A DNA stretch of 40,507 nt from a virus: the UHGV virus genome UHGV-0094371; one strand, given 5' to 3'. The notes beneath the pieces were generated by a model. It did not search any database. It saw nothing but the letters and a program-made list of their open reading frames with translations, and had not been told where the DNA came from. Of the stretch, positions 19,641 to 33,959 are shown in pieces. The translations under genes and the position numbers were made by a program. How positions within the stretch are numbered: position 1 is the stretch's first letter; the number at the start of each line of letters is the position of its first letter.

Positions 19641-20255
19641 ATGAATGCAAGGATTTTCATGGACTATTACCATGAGATTGATTTTCCATCTTTATTCGCG
19701 AGAGCAGTGGAAAGCGATGACGATGTGGGTACTACATTGCGCATTCACCTACTTTGTGAGCGCATGGTCGAAGCATGGATATGCGCATGCTGTGACTGCC
19801 AAGATCTCTTTGGAAGAGATAAAAACAAACTTTTAATCGAATGTAATACTAAAATATCCATGGCGGGAAACCTGGGAATCCCCCCGGAACTTATGAAATC
19901 ACTTAAAACCATCAACTCAATGCGTAATGACCTTGCACACAATCCATCAATACAAAGCATTGCTGATTCAAGGATCCAGAGCCTGAAGGATACTCTGACT
20001 GAATACTTTAAACAGCATCCAACGGAACCCAGCATGGAAGAATCAAAACTGGGTATTTTTAACGCCGAGAATCAATTAACCGAAGAAGTTTCCTTAGATA
20101 GTGACAGTTCAAAAAACAGACTTAAGTTAATCTTGCTGTTCAGCAAGTTAATGCAGGCGTTAATGCAATTAGTTGCAGCTAATCATAATGGGCGCTGGGA
20201 TAACCAATTTAGCCAATTCGTTTACCATGTGACCATGAACGCAACAAAGAGATAA
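19641..20255 (+). CDS. hypothetical protein with an R-x4-H (HEPN-like) motif; candidate lysogeny-expressed moron (alternative start 19659)
   Basis: 204 aa ORF antisense to the late operon in the lambda bor position; locally AT-rich by eye; motif SMRNDLAHN; GGAGG RBS. Confidence 0.5.
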   Translation: MNARIFMDYYHEIDFPSLFARAVESDDDVGTTLRIHLLCERMVEAWICACCDCQDLFGRDKNKLLIECNTKISMAGNLGIPPELMKSLKTINSMRNDLAHNPSIQSIADSRIQSLKDTLTEYFKQHPTEPSMEESKLGIFNAENQLTEEVSLDSDSSKNRLKLILLFSKLMQALMQLVAANHNGRWDNQFSQFVYHVTMNATKR

Positions 20256-20734: not shown

Positions 20735-21256
20735 CTATTGGTTATTCGACAGTCGCACTGATTCGTAAATCCGCTCACACGTCATTCCTGCCCGGTAGCT
20801 TTCGTCAGATCGTCCAGCATAATATCGAGCTGCTTCTGCAAGGCTTCCGAGCATGTCGGCAAGCATTGCTGCGTTGGCTCCGGCTGTTTTGCTTCTGACG
20901 GAAGTGGCGAGATCTGCGGTGTGCTTTGCGGCGTCCATGTGGGTAGCGAGTTTTGTTGCTTCGGCGCGCAGCTGCTTAACAGTGGTAGCCAGGCCAGCAG
21001 AAGTAACGGCAGCGCTCGCTGCTTGAGCTTGAGCATCTTTAACGGCCTCATCCCGGGCGATTGTTCGCCCTTGTTCAATCATACGAGCTGCGGTCTGTGC
21101 ATTCGCTTCCTGTGAAGATTCCGCGCTATCCCGGTCAGCCCACTTTATTTTCCAGCTGCGGTTCGTCCACTCACTGCCAGCGAGAAACGAACTTACCAAC
21201 GCAACAATCACAATGATGCAGATGCCACCCGGCTTCACTGGTCTATCCCCCAGCAC
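20735..21256 (-). CDS. Rz: i-spanin Rz
   Basis: 173 aa; N-terminal TMD (ICIIVIVALVSSFLAG) then Ala/Gln-rich coiled coil; directly after the endolysin. Confidence 0.75.
   Translation of the reverse strand: MLGDRPVKPGGICIIVIVALVSSFLAGSEWTNRSWKIKWADRDSAESSQEANAQTAARMIEQGRTIARDEAVKDAQAQAASAAVTSAGLATTVKQLRAEATKLATHMDAAKHTADLATSVRSKTAGANAAMLADMLGSLAEAARYYAGRSDESYRAGMTCERIYESVRLSNNQ
20782..21036 (-). CDS. Rz1: o-spanin Rz1 (lipoprotein) embedded in Rz in another frame
   Basis: lipobox LLSSC after a hydrophobic signal (MLKLKQRALPLLLLAWLPLLSSC), proline-rich mature part; fully inside Rz. Confidence 0.6.
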   Translation of the reverse strand: MLKLKQRALPLLLLAWLPLLSSCAPKQQNSLPTWTPQSTPQISPLPSEAKQPEPTQQCLPTCSEALQKQLDIMLDDLTKATGQE

Positions 21257-21774
21257 GTCAGTGCGCTTTCCTGGTCCCGTCTCTCAACCTGACCATAGCA
21301 GCCATTCTTCTGGCCTTTGGTTAGACGGCAATCACGGCCACCGTCTTTAATCCACCAGCGGATTGCCTCGCATGCACCGATGCGGTCACCTGCGTTGATG
21401 CGCTTATAGAAGGTCGATGGGAAGCATTTACCGGGGCCGATGTTATACGGGCAGAAGGATGCGATACCCACCTTCTGTGGCTCTGTCAGAGGCACTTTGA
21501 TATTGCGATCAACCCAGGCTAATGCCTTATCGCGTTCAATAGCGTTAACCTTCCGGCATTGTTCCTCAGTGGCCGTCATGCCCTTAACAACACGCCTGCC
21601 ATCGATAACGGTCACGCCGTGACATAAAGACCAGACCCCACCCGGATCAACAACGGCCAACAGCGCATTGCCTTCTTTCTCGCTGATGAATTGGTCGAAA
21701 ATGAGTGGAGCAGATGCCCCTGACGCGATTAGCGCCAGCACTGCTGCGCTGAGCTTTGCTTTGTTCGACATCAT
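21235..21774 (-). CDS. R: SAR endolysin (GH24 phage lysozyme), phage 21 R-like
   Basis: 179 aa; weakly hydrophobic Gly/Ala/Ser-rich N-terminus ([19 protein letters not shown]) typical of a SAR domain; E-x8-D catalytic spacing; ATGA overlap with the holin. Confidence 0.8.
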
Positions 21775-21986
21775 TCACCCCGCGCAGCTTTGCGGCGATC
21801 CGCTTTGATTTGGAAGTACAGACTCGTTAACCACGTCAGCAAACCAAACATGAGGCTACCGAGCACACCAATGGCCGCCCATTGAGATGGGGAGACTTTA
21901 TCTAGGAGCTGGAGCAACCAGTATCCGGCCCCCCCTCCCGATGCGCCGTATGCAATACCCGTCGTGATTTTTTCCATTCGATACAT
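21771..21986 (-). CDS. S: class II holin / pinholin (S21-like)
   Basis: 71 aa, two TMDs; ITTGIAYG...[14 protein letters not shown]...RRKAARGE matches phage 21 S as recalled. Confidence 0.85.
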
Positions 21987-22027
21987 GCTCTCACCTCGCT
22001 ACGTTGCGGGTGTCCAGTTGAGGTAAT

Positions 22028-22050
22028 AAAAAGGGCCGCGATAGCGACCC
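22028..22050 (-). terminator. hairpin plus T5 on the minus strand between the methyltransferase stop and the holin start
   Basis: minus-strand gggtcgctatcgcggccctttttatt. Confidence 0.4.
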
Positions 22051-22056
22051 AAGCTT

Positions 22057-23109
22057 TTATTCCCATGCCAGCTGCCTTACCTCACTTACCGTCTGGTTGA
22101 AACGTTCCTCTTCCAGTTCTACGCCGATAGCCTGGCGGCCCAGTTCAATGGCTGCTTTAACAGTTGATCCCGAGCCCATAAAGAAATCAGCTACCACATC
22201 GCCGGGCCTGCTGCTGGCGTTGATGATTTGCCGCAACATATCAGCGGGCTTTTCGCACGGGTGTTTGCCTGGATAGAACTGGACGGGTTTATGTGTCCAG
22301 ACGTCTGTATAGGGCACGGCTACTGTCACAGAGAAATGCCGCCGAAGAGATTTGTACTCTTCCAGCAGATCAAGGTATTTCCGGTTCAACGAATGCCATG
22401 TGGCCACCAGCTGGTGATGCGGTGCTTTGAGTTCAGAGGCGCGGTGCTTCTCAATGGCGATCTGAGTGAACAATTCCTGCAGCTTTTCGTAATCCTGCTC
22501 GTTTGGTAGTTGCCACTGACTGGTACCGAACCAGTGAGACGCCATATTTTTCTTTCCGGTAGCGTCAGCTATTTGCCTGGACGTGACCCCCAGTTCGGCT
22601 CGTGCATCACGAAAGTAGGTGATTAACGGAGCCATGACGTGCTGTTTGACCTCGTTGCTTTTCTCAGCAAATCCGTCGCTTTTCGGCTTATATGGCCCCT
22701 GATAATGCTCAGCGAAAAGGATGCGTTCCGTCGCGGGGAAGTAAGAGCGCAGGCTTTCTTTATTACAACCGTTCCAACGCCCTGATGGCTTCGCCCAGAT
22801 AATGTGGTTCATGACGTTGAAGCGTTCACGCATCATGATCTCAATATCGGATGCAAGTCGGTGACCTGAAAACAAATACAGGCTGCCGGCAGGCTTAAGC
22901 ACTCGCCAGAACTGGGCAAGACACATATCAAGCCAGCGAAGATAGTCGGCGTCACCGTTCCACTGATTATCCCAGCCGTTCGGCTTCACCTTAAAATAAG
23001 GCGGATCCGTAACAATAAGGTCGATGGTGTTATCTGGGAGGGTTGCGAGGTATTGCAGGCAGTCAGCGTTGATAAGCTCAACACTGTTTATATTTACAGT
23101 ATTTTTCAT
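22057..23109 (-). CDS. orphan DNA methyltransferase (beta-class N6-adenine/N4-cytosine, PF01555-like)
   Basis: 350 aa; motif IV DPPY near the N-terminus (IVTDPPYF) and motif I FxGxG near the C-terminus (DFFMGSGST); no adjacent restriction gene. Confidence 0.85.
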   Translation of the reverse strand: MKNTVNINSVELINADCLQYLATLPDNTIDLIVTDPPYFKVKPNGWDNQWNGDADYLRWLDMCLAQFWRVLKPAGSLYLFSGHRLASDIEIMMRERFNVMNHIIWAKPSGRWNGCNKESLRSYFPATERILFAEHYQGPYKPKSDGFAEKSNEVKQHVMAPLITYFRDARAELGVTSRQIADATGKKNMASHWFGTSQWQLPNEQDYEKLQELFTQIAIEKHRASELKAPHHQLVATWHSLNRKYLDLLEEYKSLRRHFSVTVAVPYTDVWTHKPVQFYPGKHPCEKPADMLRQIINASSRPGDVVADFFMGSGSTVKAAIELGRQAIGVELEEERFNQTVSEVRQLAWE

Positions 23110-23259
23110 AGATCCGTAAGCGTAACTCTGATAGGCTCACTATGCTTTTGCGCTAAAGCAGTGGGCCTTGGTTAGCTTGTGACCTGAAAGCATGAGCTAA
23201 TGGCTGGTTGGGTGCTACAACACCCACCAGCCGCCCATTTTCACAGCAGGAAACCGCCA

Positions 23260-23487
23260 TTACTGGCAGCGTCTGAATTTATTCCCGTACCCGCCGTTAT
23301 CCTTCGCCAGACCCGCCAGAACTAACTGAGTCAGTATTAACTGGCACCGGGCTTCGCTTACTCCGGTAGTTCTCGTCATCATGCATGGCGTTACCCACTT
23401 GTCAGCAGGTAAGAAATGAAGGACTGCGGCGGCGGTTTCTGTAATATCTTGCTGTTTTAGCATGTCTTTTTCCCTTCTGGTTAACAT
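23260..23487 (-). CDS. hypothetical small protein (75 aa)
   Basis: ORF only; between tR' and the methyltransferase. Confidence 0.3.
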   Translation of the reverse strand: MLTRREKDMLKQQDITETAAAVLHFLPADKWVTPCMMTRTTGVSEARCQLILTQLVLAGLAKDNGGYGNKFRRCQ

Positions 23488-23583
23488 GACATACCAATAA
23501 CTCTTGTCTAAAAATCCAGCAAGATAAAAAGTCAGTATTCACGACCACCAGCGTGTTTACTGTACTGCACCAAGTTTACAGGT

Positions 23584-23611
23584 ACAAAAAACCCGCTCAG
23601 TGGCGGGTTCC
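23584..23611 (-). terminator. candidate tR'-like intrinsic terminator of the short pR' leader transcript
   Basis: minus-strand aacccgccactgagcgggttttttgt, about 60 nt downstream of the predicted pR' start. Confidence 0.6.
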
Positions 23612-23655
23612 TAAATCTTATCAACGGTAGACATACAAAACCCATCGTTGGAAAA

Positions 23656-23684
23656 ATCTTATCCATATTTTTTGAAAAATGCAA
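23656..23684 (-). promoter_or_regulatory. candidate late promoter pR' (TTGCAT-N17-TAAGAT), where Q would act
   Basis: hexamers read on the minus strand about 30 bp downstream of the Q stop codon. Confidence 0.45.
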
Positions 23685-23715
23685 GCATCATGTCGTCATC
23701 TTCGGCGAAAACCAT

Positions 23716-24474
23716 TTATCTTGTCACCTTTCTCAATTGTATCTCTGCATATGCTTCTTCCTGCCAGCACTTTGTAACCAGTTTATCAATGACATCTGCA
23801 TATCCTTTGTACCACTGATAATCCGTCAGGTCTGGTACCAGCTTCTGGACATGATGCCGCGCCAGTGTGGTTGGTAAACGGCTAAACCGGTTTCCATTGC
23901 AACGCCCACAAATCTTATAAACAGGCGTGCCATGAAGCCGGGTCCTTTTTTCATCCAGGACAATACCTTTACCCTTACACCCTCTGCACGCTGTGCTGAC
24001 TTCTCCCTTACCATGACAATGCTGACATAGTTCCTTCACCCACTCTTCCTTGATAACAGATTCCCCGCTTCTGGAGTGTTTTACCACTTCGCGCAATACA
24101 TTATGAAATCCAGTACCAGCACAATGCTCACAGCGAGCCTTACTTGCCGCAGACCTGGAATAATCAGCAAAGGCAAAATTCACAAGGTAAGGGATGATCT
24201 GTAACCGGGTTTCTTCACTCAATTTATTCAATGTCGGGTTATCCAGTGCCATCGCGTAATTGAGCAGACCTTCAATCGCAAACTGAGGATCCTGAACACC
24301 AACTTTTGCCAGGAATAAGGCAAAACCCAGTGGTGCTTTCGACTGCACCATCCCCTGCGCAGCCATCACATCCGTAATCGTTAAACCACCAGAGCCTGTC
24401 GCCGGTGCGTCATCGCTCAATTTTGGAGATTTTGGGGAGTAATATTTTGGTAAGGCTTCAAGGTTCATGCTCAT
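23716..24474 (-). CDS. Q: antitermination protein Q (Qin quuQ / YdfT-like family)
   Basis: 252 aa with four CxxCxGxG zinc-finger repeats; immediately upstream of pR'/tR'; DUF968 neighbour as in the E. coli Qin prophage. Confidence 0.7.
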   Translation of the reverse strand: MSMNLEALPKYYSPKSPKLSDDAPATGSGGLTITDVMAAQGMVQSKAPLGFALFLAKVGVQDPQFAIEGLLNYAMALDNPTLNKLSEETRLQIIPYLVNFAFADYSRSAASKARCEHCAGTGFHNVLREVVKHSRSGESVIKEEWVKELCQHCHGKGEVSTACRGCKGKGIVLDEKRTRLHGTPVYKICGRCNGNRFSRLPTTLARHHVQKLVPDLTDYQWYKGYADVIDKLVTKCWQEEAYAEIQLRKVTR

Positions 24475-24481
24475 TCTCCAC

Positions 24482-25477
24482 TTACGCCAGTACGCCTATT
24501 GCCAGCGCACGATCGATAAAACGAAATATCAGCTCCAGCTGGGAGCCATACTTCTCTTCAAATGCCACGGTATCCGCATGCAGCTCGTCGTGATGCTTTC
24601 TGCACAAAGGCAACACAAAGAGGTCATGCGCTTTTGTACCCATTCCCCCCTGACCGTGGCCTATCAGGTGGTGGGGATCATCAGCGGGCTTTCCACAACA
24701 TGCACACGGCTGTGTCTTAACCCAGCGCGTGTACTTTTCATTAACCCAGCGGCGACGTTTTGGGCGTAACATAAAAGACCCCGGCGACTCCGGATCCACT
24801 TTCAGCGCCAGCACCTTTTTTGCCTTATCCTGGATGATGCTGGTGGCAGGAACCGAAGGCACAAGGTCACTTTCCCGGGTGACAGACGGCACAACAGGCT
24901 TTGGTAATCTCAGTGCCTTACGGGCTGCACTTTCCGGTAAGGCATCCGCCAGGTCATTACGAATCAGCCACCAGCACAGTTCCGGCATTGTCACAACGTG
25001 ACTATCATCAAAACCGAGATCCCGACGCACAACAGACAACACCCAGCGGGCACAGTTATCCGTTGCCATTGATTCCAGCCGTTCCGTGAACTGATCGCGC
25101 AGCTGGTTATCACAGTGCCAGCACAGACGGATTGCGCCCGGAGCGTGTCGCATTGTGGTCATGTTCTCGCTGTGCCAGTCGGAATGAGGCCACTGGCAGC
25201 CTTTTTCACGAAGTAACCAGCTTTCAAGACATTCCACGCCACCAGCACGACGGATCACTGCCTCATTGCGGAACACGGCCCGAACAGCAGGATCATCCGC
25301 CAGCGGTTGTGATGCCGCCGGAACGGCACCACTGGCAAAAGATGAATAACGTTCCGGCTCAGGCTCCAGCAGGACACGCCCCTGCATAAACAGGGGCATC
25401 AGCTCTGAACCTGGCCTGAACAATACGATCCCCATACGCGGGGCAATTTCAGGGGTCAGTAATGCTCTCACGGTCAC
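24482..25477 (-). CDS. DUF968 (YdfU-like) protein with C-terminal HNH-type zinc-finger nuclease motif
   Basis: 331 aa; CACCGKP...HHLIGHG...CRKHHDELH motif. Confidence 0.7.
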   Translation of the reverse strand: MTVRALLTPEIAPRMGIVLFRPGSELMPLFMQGRVLLEPEPERYSSFASGAVPAASQPLADDPAVRAVFRNEAVIRRAGGVECLESWLLREKGCQWPHSDWHSENMTTMRHAPGAIRLCWHCDNQLRDQFTERLESMATDNCARWVLSVVRRDLGFDDSHVVTMPELCWWLIRNDLADALPESAARKALRLPKPVVPSVTRESDLVPSVPATSIIQDKAKKVLALKVDPESPGSFMLRPKRRRWVNEKYTRWVKTQPCACCGKPADDPHHLIGHGQGGMGTKAHDLFVLPLCRKHHDELHADTVAFEEKYGSQLELIFRFIDRALAIGVLA

Positions 25478-32636: not shown

Positions 32637-33959
32637 ATGAGCGAGATTGCACCAACGAGCCTGTTACACCCTCTGAAAGCTACCGTTCTGGATTTTCAGG
32701 AGGATGAGCACGACTATCAGTTCAAGGTTGAATACCCGGAGCCGACCTGCTGCCATGCCTGCGGTGCAGTGTCTGACATCATCCGCTTTAACAAAAAGCT
32801 GGTGAAGTACCGGGATGTTCCCATGCACGGGAAGCGCGTCACGCTCTGGGTCGTAACACGCCGTTATCAGTGCAAATCATGCAAAGGCACATTCACCCCG
32901 GCCATCCCCGAGATGGCCGAAGCCCACCGCATGACAAAGCGCTGCTATCAGTACATCATTAAACGTGCGCTGACCGGCACTAACGCCAGCGTCGCGCAAG
33001 ATGTTGGCTTTGATGAGTCCGTCACCCGTGGGGTCATCAAGTCCTACTGCGAGCAAAAGGCGAAGACCTATAAGCCTGTGCTGCCGCGAGTGCTGGGCAT
33101 TGATGAGCTGTACCTGAACAAAACCTTCCGCTGTGTCCTGACCAACATCGAGCAGGGAACCATTATTGACATACTGGAATCCCGGCAAAGTAACGTCATC
33201 TACAACCGTCTGGCGCATATGGAAGGCCGTGAGAACGTGCAGATCGTCTGTCAGGATATGTGGAAGCCATACCGTGACGTTGCCAGCCAGCTATTCCCTA
33301 AAGCCAGCATCGTCGTTGACCGCTTCCATATCCAGCGCATGGCTAACGAGGCGATGGAAACGCTGCGTAAGTCGCTCAAAAAGGATCTGACAGTACACCA
33401 CCGACGGCAGCTTAAAGGCGACCGTAAGATGATGTTGATGCGTAAGCGTGACCTTAACCCTATGCAGCAGATGATTATCGAAACGTGGCTGGATCACTAT
33501 CCTGAGTTGGGTCTGGCCTATCAGCTCAAGGAAGAGTTCTTTGATATCTGGCTGGCACAGACTGAACCTGAGGCCAGAATGCGCTATCAGAACTGGCTGG
33601 CAAAGATACCCGATCATCATAAAAAGCACTGGAAGCCGCTGATAACATCCATGACGAACTGGGAGAAAGAGATATTCGCCTACTTCGGCCCGGCCCAGCG
33701 GAAGACCAACGCCTTTACGGAATCCATCAACCGCAAGATGCGCGATCTGAACCGTGATTCGCGCGGAATGTCCTTTGAGATGTTCAGGGCTAAAACACTG
33801 TTCACTCTCAAGCATAAGTTCAGCAAGCCTAAACCAGTGAAAGAATCACCGTTCACGGTTGGCTATGTCACCGCTGGTTCGTGGGATCTGGATGATGAAA
33901 TCCGGGACGATTACGGCGTATCTATCGACGCTATTCTGGAATCCAAAATCGGCGAATAA
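32637..33959 (+). CDS. ISL3-family DDE transposase homologue (zinc ribbon plus DDE domain), with no terminal inverted repeats found
   Basis: 440 aa; N-terminal CCHACG...CKSCKG; LGIDE, VCQDMWKPY, DRFHI and TNAFTESINRKMRDLNR motifs resemble the ISL3 signature as recalled; starts 15 nt after the KilA-N stop. Confidence 0.6.
   Translation: MSEIAPTSLLHPLKATVLDFQEDEHDYQFKVEYPEPTCCHACGAVSDIIRFNKKLVKYRDVPMHGKRVTLWVVTRRYQCKSCKGTFTPAIPEMAEAHRMTKRCYQYIIKRALTGTNASVAQDVGFDESVTRGVIKSYCEQKAKTYKPVLPRVLGIDELYLNKTFRCVLTNIEQGTIIDILESRQSNVIYNRLAHMEGRENVQIVCQDMWKPYRDVASQLFPKASIVVDRFHIQRMANEAMETLRKSLKKDLTVHHRRQLKGDRKMMLMRKRDLNPMQQMIIETWLDHYPELGLAYQLKEEFFDIWLAQTEPEARMRYQNWLAKIPDHHKKHWKPLITSMTNWEKEIFAYFGPAQRKTNAFTESINRKMRDLNRDSRGMSFEMFRAKTLFTLKHKFSKPKPVKESPFTVGYVTAGSWDLDDEIRDDYGVSIDAILESKIGE

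Follow-up and report, generated by a model that had tools for sequence, protein, structure and literature searches.

The window analyzed here, the whole 40,507-nucleotide (nt) stretch of the viral genome UHGV-0094371, carries the late region of a lambda-like prophage on its minus strand, and within this region lies a gene for a DNA methyltransferase of the M.EcoGII type preceded by a conserved, structured leader RNA. Read downstream, the order is a DUF968 gene, the gene of the late antiterminator Q, the candidate late promoter pR', the terminator tR', an open reading frame (ORF) of 67 amino acids (aa), a hairpin, the leader, the methyltransferase gene, a hairpin followed by a T-run, and the lysis genes for holin, endolysin and Rz; the remainder of the window encodes packaging, head and tail proteins of the lambda family. 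All features lie on the minus strand unless marked (+). The methyltransferase (350 aa) occupies positions 22057–23109 and its leader (138 nt) positions 23247–23110. Upstream lies Q (252 aa, 23716–24474; PF03589 Antiterm, E = 9.5e-54), and downstream the first lysis gene, encoding a phage-21-type holin S (71 aa, 21771–21986; PF04971, E = 2.5e-31), is followed by those of the endolysin (21235–21774; PF00959) and an Rz-like spanin (20735–21256; PF10721). An earlier annotation of this DNA, referred to below as the original prediction, gave no strand and described an orphan beta-class methyltransferase in the interval between Q and the lysis genes; the class of the enzyme and its position between Q and holin hold.

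The methyltransferase matches the PF01555 N6_N4_Mtase profile (E = 3.6e-43; 148.5 bits against a cut-off of 26.7) over aa 29–340. The DPPY motif (aa 35–38) precedes FFMGSGST (aa 309–316), i.e., motif IV comes before motif I, which is the beta-class order of an N6-adenine methyltransferase. Both motifs are invariant in an alignment with M.EcoGII and with the SfV, Klebsiella and Aeromonas relatives, and the ORF is of full length, so that the disrupted catalytic motif considered in the original prediction is not seen. Identity to M.EcoGII is 76% over the full length (348 columns with two gap positions, the central region being free of insertions and deletions), while identity to the reconstructed ancestors Anc291 and Anc289 is 84–86% and to the deeper ancestor SUPREM 72%. 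The sequences of M.EcoGII and of the ancestors come from the machine-read supplement of the SUPREM paper, with a few evident reading errors (e.g., NHHIW for NHIIW); as an independent control, a database sequence from a Stx2a phage is 94% identical to the machine-read M.EcoGII and 77% to the window protein. The closest copies are those of phage Phi06_2987 S (99.4%) and of Enterobacter and Buttiauxella prophages. Among solved structures no close relative was found, and the best matches, the distant beta-class enzymes 9c3u, 8urk and M.RsrI, cover the two motif regions only. The window enzyme is very likely a member of the M.EcoGII clade.

According to the paper on M.EcoGI and M.EcoGII of E. coli O104:H4 C227-11, M.EcoGII is a sequence-non-specific adenine methyltransferase, reported to be fully active alone, with relatives listed in enterobacterial phages (PMC5778455). 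In the SUPREM paper, each of the purified ancestors is reported to methylate both DNA and RNA, and non-specificity on RNA, examined for M.EcoGII, Anc291 and SUPREM, to be retained (PMC11551740). In terms of identity, the window enzyme is thus placed among the tested non-specific enzymes, and, judging from these relatives, it is likely to be sequence-non-specific for adenine as well. It shares with M.EcoGII and M.EcoGI the family, the length of 349–350 aa, the DPPY...FxGxG order and the prophage location (PMC5778455), and it is a different allele from M.EcoGII. By its sequence, then, the enzyme is no orphan of unknown kind but an ordinary allele of the already characterized M.EcoGII family. Members of the family across the Enterobacterales share 52–99% identity, and their synonymous sites are saturated, a sign of purifying selection.

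The leader is more strongly conserved than the enzyme it precedes. The 150 nt from the small ORF to the ATG are 93% identical among the window and phages Ayreon and SfV, the enzymes of which are only ~80% identical. The samples comprised 80 species-level loci, 120 viral contigs and 127 unique leaders, and the leader was delimited in an alignment (A4) of 56 loci by covariation and by its fold (z = −3.2). It is recognizable in 56 of the 80 species loci, from Escherichia, Salmonella, Enterobacter and Klebsiella to Yersinia, Ewingella, Hafnia, Lonsdalea, Rosenbergiella and Providencia. In pairs of loci whose enzymes are 70–80% identical, identity of the leader reaches 83.5%, with gaps counted as mismatches, compared to 71% for the whole gene and 37% for four-fold degenerate sites. 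In all 118 viral contigs with room downstream (118/118) the leader pattern is followed by this methyltransferase, and in the viral contigs the ATG lies 129–131 nt past the invariant AATGGGCG. Among 5426 complete E. coli genomes 2636 carry the leader, in at most eight copies each, O157:H7 and ST131 strains included.

In the single RefSeq locus inspected the leader carries no annotation, and literature searches for a description of it gave nothing relevant, which is not proof of its absence; the examined sections of the M.EcoGII and SUPREM papers contain no mention of the leader RNA or of the small upstream ORF (PMC5778455, PMC11551740). A search against the known RNA families of Rfam 15 with permissive thresholds returned nothing at gathering score; below threshold, the opposite strand gave P26, Streptomyces-metK and STnc130 and the sense strand microRNA models only (E from 0.3 to 8), all of which were taken as chance. 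A shorter leader, situated ~110 nt ahead of the gene in Xenorhabdus and Photorhabdus (L060–L086), keeps segment 1, the first hairpin and CUA.CCAGAG, and is devoid of hairpin P2 and of the partner of segment 3, these elements being described below. In several of these loci TAG is the codon two after the apparent ATG (ATGGAATAG), which makes the true start or frame doubtful.

Four short segments and two hairpins make up the leader. Segment 1 (AAUGGGCG, 23239–23232) is followed by the P1-inner hairpin (23232–23202), segment 2 (23200–23192), segment 3 (23185–23172), the P2 hairpin (23167–23134) and segment 4 (23122–23110), the last situated directly ahead of the AUG. In the P1-inner hairpin both-side changes occur in 9 of 12 pairs, according to pair counts in the 56-sequence alignment, and one pair of P2 is read as C-G 68, U-A 24 and U-G 7 in the 127 unique leaders. 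Segments 1 and 2 are paired in 99.4% of cells and vary through wobble only. For segments 2 and 3, one pair is found as C-G 30, A-U 10, U-A 7 and U-G 4 in the alignment and as 48, 46, 23 and 5, respectively, in the unique leaders, where it is canonical in 97%; in the copies from Yersinia, Ewingella and Providencia another three pairs show compensation. Segments 3 and 4, the latter being the 13 nt ahead of the AUG, are paired in 87% of cells, compared to 22–43% for a slid partner, with some compensatory changes. The 2:3 and 3:4 pairings were first spotted by inspection and then tested by pair counts and an all-against-all column scan, several high-scoring pairs of which reflect lineage structure and were disregarded. 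The measures for P1, P2, the 2:3 pairing and the 1:2 pairing were not reached by any shuffle.

The three pairings 1:2, 2:3 and 3:4 are unable to coexist all together. Segment 1 accommodates substitutions in segment 2 via G-U wobble, and segment 3 compensates for the same substitutions; wobble in the one together with compensation in the other is the pattern expected from selection for both pairings. Because many of the pairs are G-U, the structure fits the sense strand only. The leader is thus very probably a functional RNA structure. The candidate of a conserved leader peptide was rejected: the ORFs starting from the invariant AUG of segment 1 run from 3 to at least 48 aa and share neither sequence nor stop, and 1-nt insertions or deletions are frequent across the leader alignment.

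When either state was forced in the 127 unique leaders, the 1:2 state was lower by 5.8 ± 4.4 kcal/mol, while the mean probability of the start region being unpaired was 0.445 in the 2:3 state and 0.376 in the 1:2 state, being higher in the former in 98 of the 127. The methyltransferase gene has no GGAGG-like Shine-Dalgarno sequence. A nearly invariant UGAUCU precedes the AUG, and a complementary sequence, GAUCA, occurs at the 3' end of 16S rRNA; judging by this complementarity UGAUCU may represent a weak, unusual ribosome contact. In the same six bases (23110–23115) the Dam site GATC is near-invariant, being present in 54 of the 56 aligned loci, which may simply reflect the constraints of pairing and ribosome contact. 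That the leader gates translation by means of a four-segment switch is suggested by these features at somewhat less than an even chance.

The small ORF upstream of the leader (23260–23463) encodes 67 aa from its second ATG, which is preceded by an AAGGGA Shine-Dalgarno sequence; a start at the first ATG (23487) gives 75 aa. Its product belongs to phrog_331, a family of unknown function (E = 1.2e-23), has no match in Pfam or NCBIfam, and has homologues of 63–67 aa in Escherichia and Salmonella. An AlphaFold2 model (predicted local distance difference test, pLDDT, 88) displays the helix-helix-helix-strand-strand layout of a winged helix. The small ORF lies 100–190 nt upstream of the methyltransferase gene in ~55 of the 80 species loci and in 106 of the 120 viral contigs, the distance in the window being 150 nt. 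Helix 3, the recognition helix RCQL(I/L)LTQ..AGL, hardly varies between E. coli and Xenorhabdus, while identity in the remainder of the protein drops to below 40%. The best full-length fold match is the Z-alpha domain of ADAR1 (TM-score 0.85, root-mean-square deviation 1.1 Å, 16% identity, E = 4e-3). Contacts of that domain with Z-form nucleic acid are made by a conserved Asn and Tyr in helix 3 and a conserved Trp in the wing; in the small protein, aligned by eye, these positions are taken by Gln41, Thr45 and Phe63 (RCQLILTQ...NKF), and membership in the Z-alpha group was rejected, the fold being present and the key residues not. The label of an orphan, given in the original prediction, stands in part: no nuclease was detected, whereas the gene travels with the conserved leader and usually also with the small winged-helix ORF.

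The late promoter candidate pR' (23684–23639) has the form TTGCAT-17 nt-TAAGAT-6 nt-AACGATGGGTT, with the −35 element TTGCAT at 23684–23679, the −10 element TAAGAT at 23661–23656 and the sigma-70-dependent pause block AACGATGGGTT at 23649–23639. The lambda pR' is TTGACT-17-TAAATT-6-AACGATGGGTT; the spacing is equal and the 11-nt pause-inducing block identical. With 8 of 12 consensus matches the candidate stays under the threshold of the promoter scan, and it is a putative promoter assigned by homology of layout. The intrinsic terminator tR' (23611–23585) folds into a 10-base-pair hairpin, GGAACCCGCC-ACUGAG-CGGGUU, followed by U6; it was not picked up by a simple terminator scan, and the whole 76-nt piece folds at z = −1.4 only, while its counterpart is annotated as a terminator in SfV and Ayreon. 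The interval from pR' to tR' (23586–23649) would yield an RNA of ~64 nt, constitutive in the lysogen and forming two hairpins on folding, a counterpart of the lambda 6S RNA and of StxS, the Hfq-binding small RNA (sRNA) of Stx phages (PMC7547250). A weak match to STnc130, a Salmonella sRNA family, at 23482–23618 (+) overlaps tR' (27.7 bits, the gathering score being 55; E = 0.25) and is probably due to chance.

Two further hairpins flank the leader and the methyltransferase gene. One spans the stop codon of the small ORF (23270–23242; GCUGCC-AGUAAU-GGCGGU) and is followed by a weak U-rich tract; at the equivalent position other loci, e.g., L009 and L010, have a clear terminator with U8. The other is the intrinsic terminator of the gap between methyltransferase and holin (22050–22025), consisting of the hairpin GGGTCGC-tatc-GCGGCCC (22050–22033) and the T-run TTTTTATT (22032–22025). 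This hairpin begins 6 nt past the stop codon and ends 47 nt ahead of the holin ATG (21986); it folds at −13.8 kcal/mol (z = −3.2), an equally good fold being found in 1 of 200 shuffles. In the scan of 21500–24600, 8 terminator-like sites were observed compared to 2.8 ± 1.6 expected. A G+C-rich hairpin with a directly adjoining U-run is present at tR' and at 22050–22025, both putative terminators predicted from sequence. The terminator on each side of the cassette and the hairpin with a T-run between the stop codon and the holin start, both described in the original prediction, were thus found again. So was the lack of a restriction partner: no restriction enzyme was detected in the 41 other window ORFs, either among the 25 Pfam families listed of the 52 matched or among the 21 PADLOC matches, the small ORF in its 75- and 67-aa forms lying outside that scan.

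The same cassette is present in other phages, and its gene arrangement is already on record. In SfV (NC_003444) the order is Q, a terminator, orf47, orf48 (DNA methyltransferase), a terminator and holin, and the annotation includes both terminators; that of Ayreon agrees with it, again with both terminators, and mEp460 has the same genes. The region in these three phages resembles the window in gene order, with Q 100% identical, the methyltransferase ~80% and the leader 93%. SfV differs from the window in its holin type and in its small ORF, which is only 49% identical, whereas in Ayreon and the Stx2c phages an additional ~0.7 kb of DNA separates Q from the small ORF. The window Q is 100% identical to that of Ayreon, SfV and one Stx2c phage. 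The post-gene terminator of SfV and Ayreon is positioned as in the window and has a different stem sequence. The methyltransferase gene is almost always the last one ahead of the lysis cassette or of inserted cargo, and it adjoins lysis cassettes from Escherichia to Aeromonas.

That Stx phages use this interval, as the original prediction had stated, can be confirmed, with the cassette being located immediately upstream of stx2 in both Stx2a and Stx2c phages. A Stx2a phage of the yecE type (L006, 3056–6682) has the order Q, small ORF, methyltransferase, tRNAs and stx2AB, while in a Stx2c phage (L207, 3652–8071), with a Q 100% identical to that of the window, the methyltransferase is followed by stx2A. 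In O157:H7 EC4115 the cassette sits after an antiterminator of a different family. Since the cassette lies between Q and stx2 in the Stx2a and Stx2c phages, every Shiga-toxin late transcript there first crosses the leader and the methyltransferase gene. In the Stx-phage genomics literature examined, the methyltransferase gene is unmentioned or another methyltransferase is described. As to the late operon of pR', tR', stx and lysis genes, the slot and the Q/pR'/tR' logic are the same as in the window (PMC7547250), with a toxin as cargo instead of a DNA-modifying enzyme; the Stx2a and Stx2c phages carry both, the methyltransferase cassette coming first.

The segment 22057–24474 of the window is mosaic, with a junction at or near the leader. 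Q, the DUF968 gene and the small ORF are 97–100% identical to those of the E. coli phage Ayreon (L001), while the methyltransferase, holin and endolysin are 97–99% identical to those of an Enterobacter wuhouensis prophage (L007) and 35–81% to those of Ayreon, the window methyltransferase itself being 81% identical to that of Ayreon and 99% to that of an Enterobacter prophage. The conserved leader may double as a recombination site.

As to the time of expression, a consensus scan, which can overlook unusual promoters, returned 3 promoter-like sites where 3.4 are expected by chance, and none of them lies in the 150 nt ahead of the gene. The sole minus-strand site, CTGACA-16-CATGAT (23405–23378), is located inside the small ORF. 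In lambdoid phages pR' fires constitutively, its transcripts ending at tR' during lysogeny, and downstream stx genes are transcribed from pR' only after antitermination by Q (PMC7547250). M.EcoGI and M.EcoGII are reported to stay unexpressed in their lysogen, and constitutive clones to be slow-growing and unstable; Murray et al. (2018) suggested that exit of the prophage from lysogeny turns the gene on, and protection against restriction is proposed for phage methyltransferases in general (PMC5778455). The window has the matching prophage context, with lambda-like late and structural genes, and silence in the lysogen is supported by the position of the gene past tR' and by the absence of a promoter signal. 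In view of the pR'/tR' logic, the chance-level promoters and the silent relatives, the methyltransferase can be considered a late-operon gene and not an autonomous moron; with good confidence, if somewhat less than that placed in the leader as a functional structure, it would be made from the Q-dependent late transcript only.

The explanation favored here, to which a probability of about 0.6 can be assigned as a whole, is that of a late M.EcoGII-type enzyme, Q-dependent and leader-gated. In the lysogen pR' would fire constitutively and its transcripts would end at tR', so that no enzyme is made. A Q-modified polymerase ignores intrinsic terminators, and upon induction it would pass tR', the small-ORF hairpin, the methyltransferase gene and the pre-holin terminator. 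The enzyme would then be the first cargo of the Q-dependent late operon, appearing together with the lysis and head proteins, and would methylate adenines in any context on the replicating phage DNA ahead of packaging; the progeny DNA would thereby be broadly shielded from restriction in the next host. The series of three hairpins would mainly insulate the toxic enzyme and the lysis genes from leaky pR' transcription. Protection of phage DNA, already put forward in the original prediction, is compatible with the M.EcoGII family and is, on balance, the probable role of the enzyme. A second gate would act on the mRNA: the stable fold with the 1:2 and 3:4 pairings would bury the 13 nt ahead of the AUG, the alternative fold with the 2:3 pairing would free the start region, and some trigger would flip the one into the other. 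The candidate trigger is the 67-aa winged-helix protein, acting as Com does on mom, a part for it that is rather doubtful. In the most far-reaching form of the proposal, which is tentative and on the unlikely side, the leader would represent an undescribed class of RNA switch gating a toxic non-specific methyltransferase, with the trigger being the winged-helix protein (a lambdoid Com counterpart built of unrelated parts), S-adenosylmethionine or S-adenosylhomocysteine, or RNA methylation by the enzyme itself.

The closest functional analogy to such an arrangement is the com-mom operon of phage Mu. Com activates translation of the toxic late adenine-modifying mom, and protection against restriction has been shown for Mu mom; in Mu-like prophages where mom is swapped for non-specific adenine methyltransferases com is retained, and mom as well as its replacements Hin1523, Nma1821 and Hia5, which sit behind com, are thought to be repressed until lytic growth (PMC3299994). 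As in the window cassette, the late and toxic adenine-modifying gene has a small ORF immediately upstream, and translational control together with protection against many restriction enzymes may be proposed for both. The small proteins have no relation in sequence or fold, a winged helix without the CxxC...CxxC pattern in the window and a zinc-binding protein in Mu, and the leaders differ likewise, being a short stem beside the start codon in Mu and a 138-nt four-segment leader in the window. Transcription of Mu mom is controlled by Mu C, Dam and OxyR, in contrast to Q antitermination for the window cassette. With proteins and RNAs unrelated, the resemblance is one of logic only and not of membership. 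The layout of the leader also recalls the erm rRNA methyltransferases, subject to leader-controlled translational attenuation with four segments, where the 1:2 and 3:4 pairings hide the ribosome-binding region and the 2:3 pairing frees it. The window leader shares the four-segment layout and an AUG in segment 1 with the erm leaders, and differs from them by having no conserved leader peptide, no antibiotic signal and a DNA methyltransferase as its target.

Several other explanations compete with the late, leader-gated enzyme. In the original prediction the gene was a moron, i.e., in the sense of Hendrix and Juhala, an autonomous unit of promoter, gene and terminator expressed from the prophage; it would alter the host methylome or protect the lysogen DNA, its terminator sparing the lysis genes. 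The cassette does have a terminator directly after the gene and is bracketed by terminators, and the slot also houses lysogenic-conversion genes such as stx; an own promoter between the flanking phage genes was not found, and the one weak promoter-like site upstream (23405–23378) lies inside the small ORF at a chance-level frequency of such sites. The location of the gene behind tR', the reported silence of M.EcoGI and M.EcoGII in the lysogen together with the slow growth and instability of constitutive clones (PMC5778455), the lack of a Shine-Dalgarno sequence and the predicted base pairing of the start region also speak against expression from the prophage, and a non-specific enzyme cannot write a defined epigenetic pattern. 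A moron is thus very improbable, and the claims of expression in the lysogen and of altered host epigenetics are not upheld. The original prediction also took the absence of a lysogen-specific methylation motif as a sign of its own failure; this is misleading, as the family has no sequence motif and silence is expected in the lysogen, so that a negative methylation result would not prove the gene inactive. Even less probable, to an extreme degree, is a decaying passenger gene with no current function. M.EcoGII was described on a cryptic prophage and as unexpressed (PMC5778455), and an ISL3 transposase may interrupt the window prophage elsewhere; against decay stand the full-length ORF with both catalytic motifs intact, the purifying selection on the family across the Enterobacterales, and the presence of the cassette in the isolated phages Ayreon, mEp460 and SfV.

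The physiological substrate could also be RNA, or the enzyme could form a two-subunit holoenzyme with the winged-helix protein as the specificity subunit directing it to rRNA, mRNA or particular DNA. M.EcoGII and its ancestors methylate RNA (PMC5778455 and PMC11551740), the small ORF with its almost invariant helix 3 is tightly linked to the gene, and an MT-A70 methyltransferase of Stx phages needs a second small protein directing it to 16S rRNA (PMC10810198). The latter enzyme represents another family, with DPPW, at another genome location (PMC10810198); its identity with the PF01555 enzyme with DPPY found here was considered and rejected, only an analogy being left. M.EcoGII is reported to be fully active alone (PMC5778455), the authors of the SUPREM paper see the RNA activity as a by-product (PMC11551740), and many loci have no small ORF, all of which makes this explanation improbable. 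Less remote, and still unlikely, is a leader that is not a translational switch at all and serves as a DNA recombination linker between mosaic modules, as a processing or stability element, or as an sRNA processed out of the late transcript. For lambdoid phages, conserved intergenic linkers have classically been proposed, the window is mosaic at just this place, with an Ayreon-like small ORF and Q and an Enterobacter-like methyltransferase, and the modeled change in accessibility is small. The compensatory and wobble-only changes on the sense strand, among them the segment 2 substitutions accommodated by both of its partners, point instead to selection on RNA structure and not just on DNA identity, and the fixed distance to the ATG and the exclusive link to one gene do not fit a mere linker either.

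A number of observations weigh against the late, leader-gated enzyme itself. The start codon becomes only slightly more accessible in the model from one fold to the other (0.38 versus 0.45), the covariation of the 3:4 pairing is limited, some of the measures for this pairing were reached by shuffles (343/500, 21/500 and 4/500), and RNAalifold alone recovers only P1 and part of P2. The small ORF is lacking in about one-quarter to one-third of the species loci that keep the leader, and it is thus no obligatory partner; its fold matches those of generic winged helices, all with Foldseek E > 0.001, and RNA binding by its product is purely hypothetical. A terminator directly after the gene is frequent and not universal, a hairpin starting 5–9 nt past the methyltransferase stop codon being present in 23 of 86 loci with many unrelated stems. 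The specificity of the enzyme is deduced from 72–86% identity to tested enzymes, with machine-read references, and its activity, expression and methylation are predicted. To our knowledge an anti-restriction benefit has been shown for no member of the M.EcoGII-type family.

The methyltransferase gene itself adds little, being a further allele of a characterized family that is sold as a reagent. Of interest is the control of the enzyme by the phage, since M.EcoGII-type enzymes are widely used in the mapping of chromatin and RNA and are hard to express due to the harm they cause to the host, and natural control elements for them seem to have gone undescribed. As a natural off-switch, a leader RNA that surpasses the enzyme in conservation would be of use. 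It would also offer a tractable case of post-transcriptional control in the lambdoid late operon, which is usually treated as regulated by Q only. Due to the position of the cassette between pR' and stx2 in the Stx2a and Stx2c phages, its terminators and leader belong to the Shiga-toxin transcript. If the anti-restriction role is true, the cassette helps to explain the broad host range of lambdoid prophages among the Enterobacterales. The leader RNA together with the small ORF is the element deserving further work, while expression in the lysogen is the weak part of the original prediction.

Some other features of the window are also worth mentioning. No tRNA or transfer-messenger RNA gene was found in it. 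The ISL3-family transposase gene (32637–33959, +; PF01610; phrog_5749, E = 2.7e-158) is located inside the early region, and the prophage may therefore be interrupted there. One of the 41 scanned window ORFs matches the PADLOC model DpdH (E = 1.5e-37) and others match RmrA, mad1 and capH weakly; these matches may reflect generic domains found in proteins of phage replication or recombination. An ORF of 204 aa (19641–20255, +), located between lysis cassette and packaging genes at a typical site of prophage accessory genes, belongs to phrog_5483, a family of unknown function (E = 1.6e-80), has no Pfam or PADLOC match, and contains, as seen by eye, an R-x4-H motif (RNDLAH) like that of HEPN nucleases.

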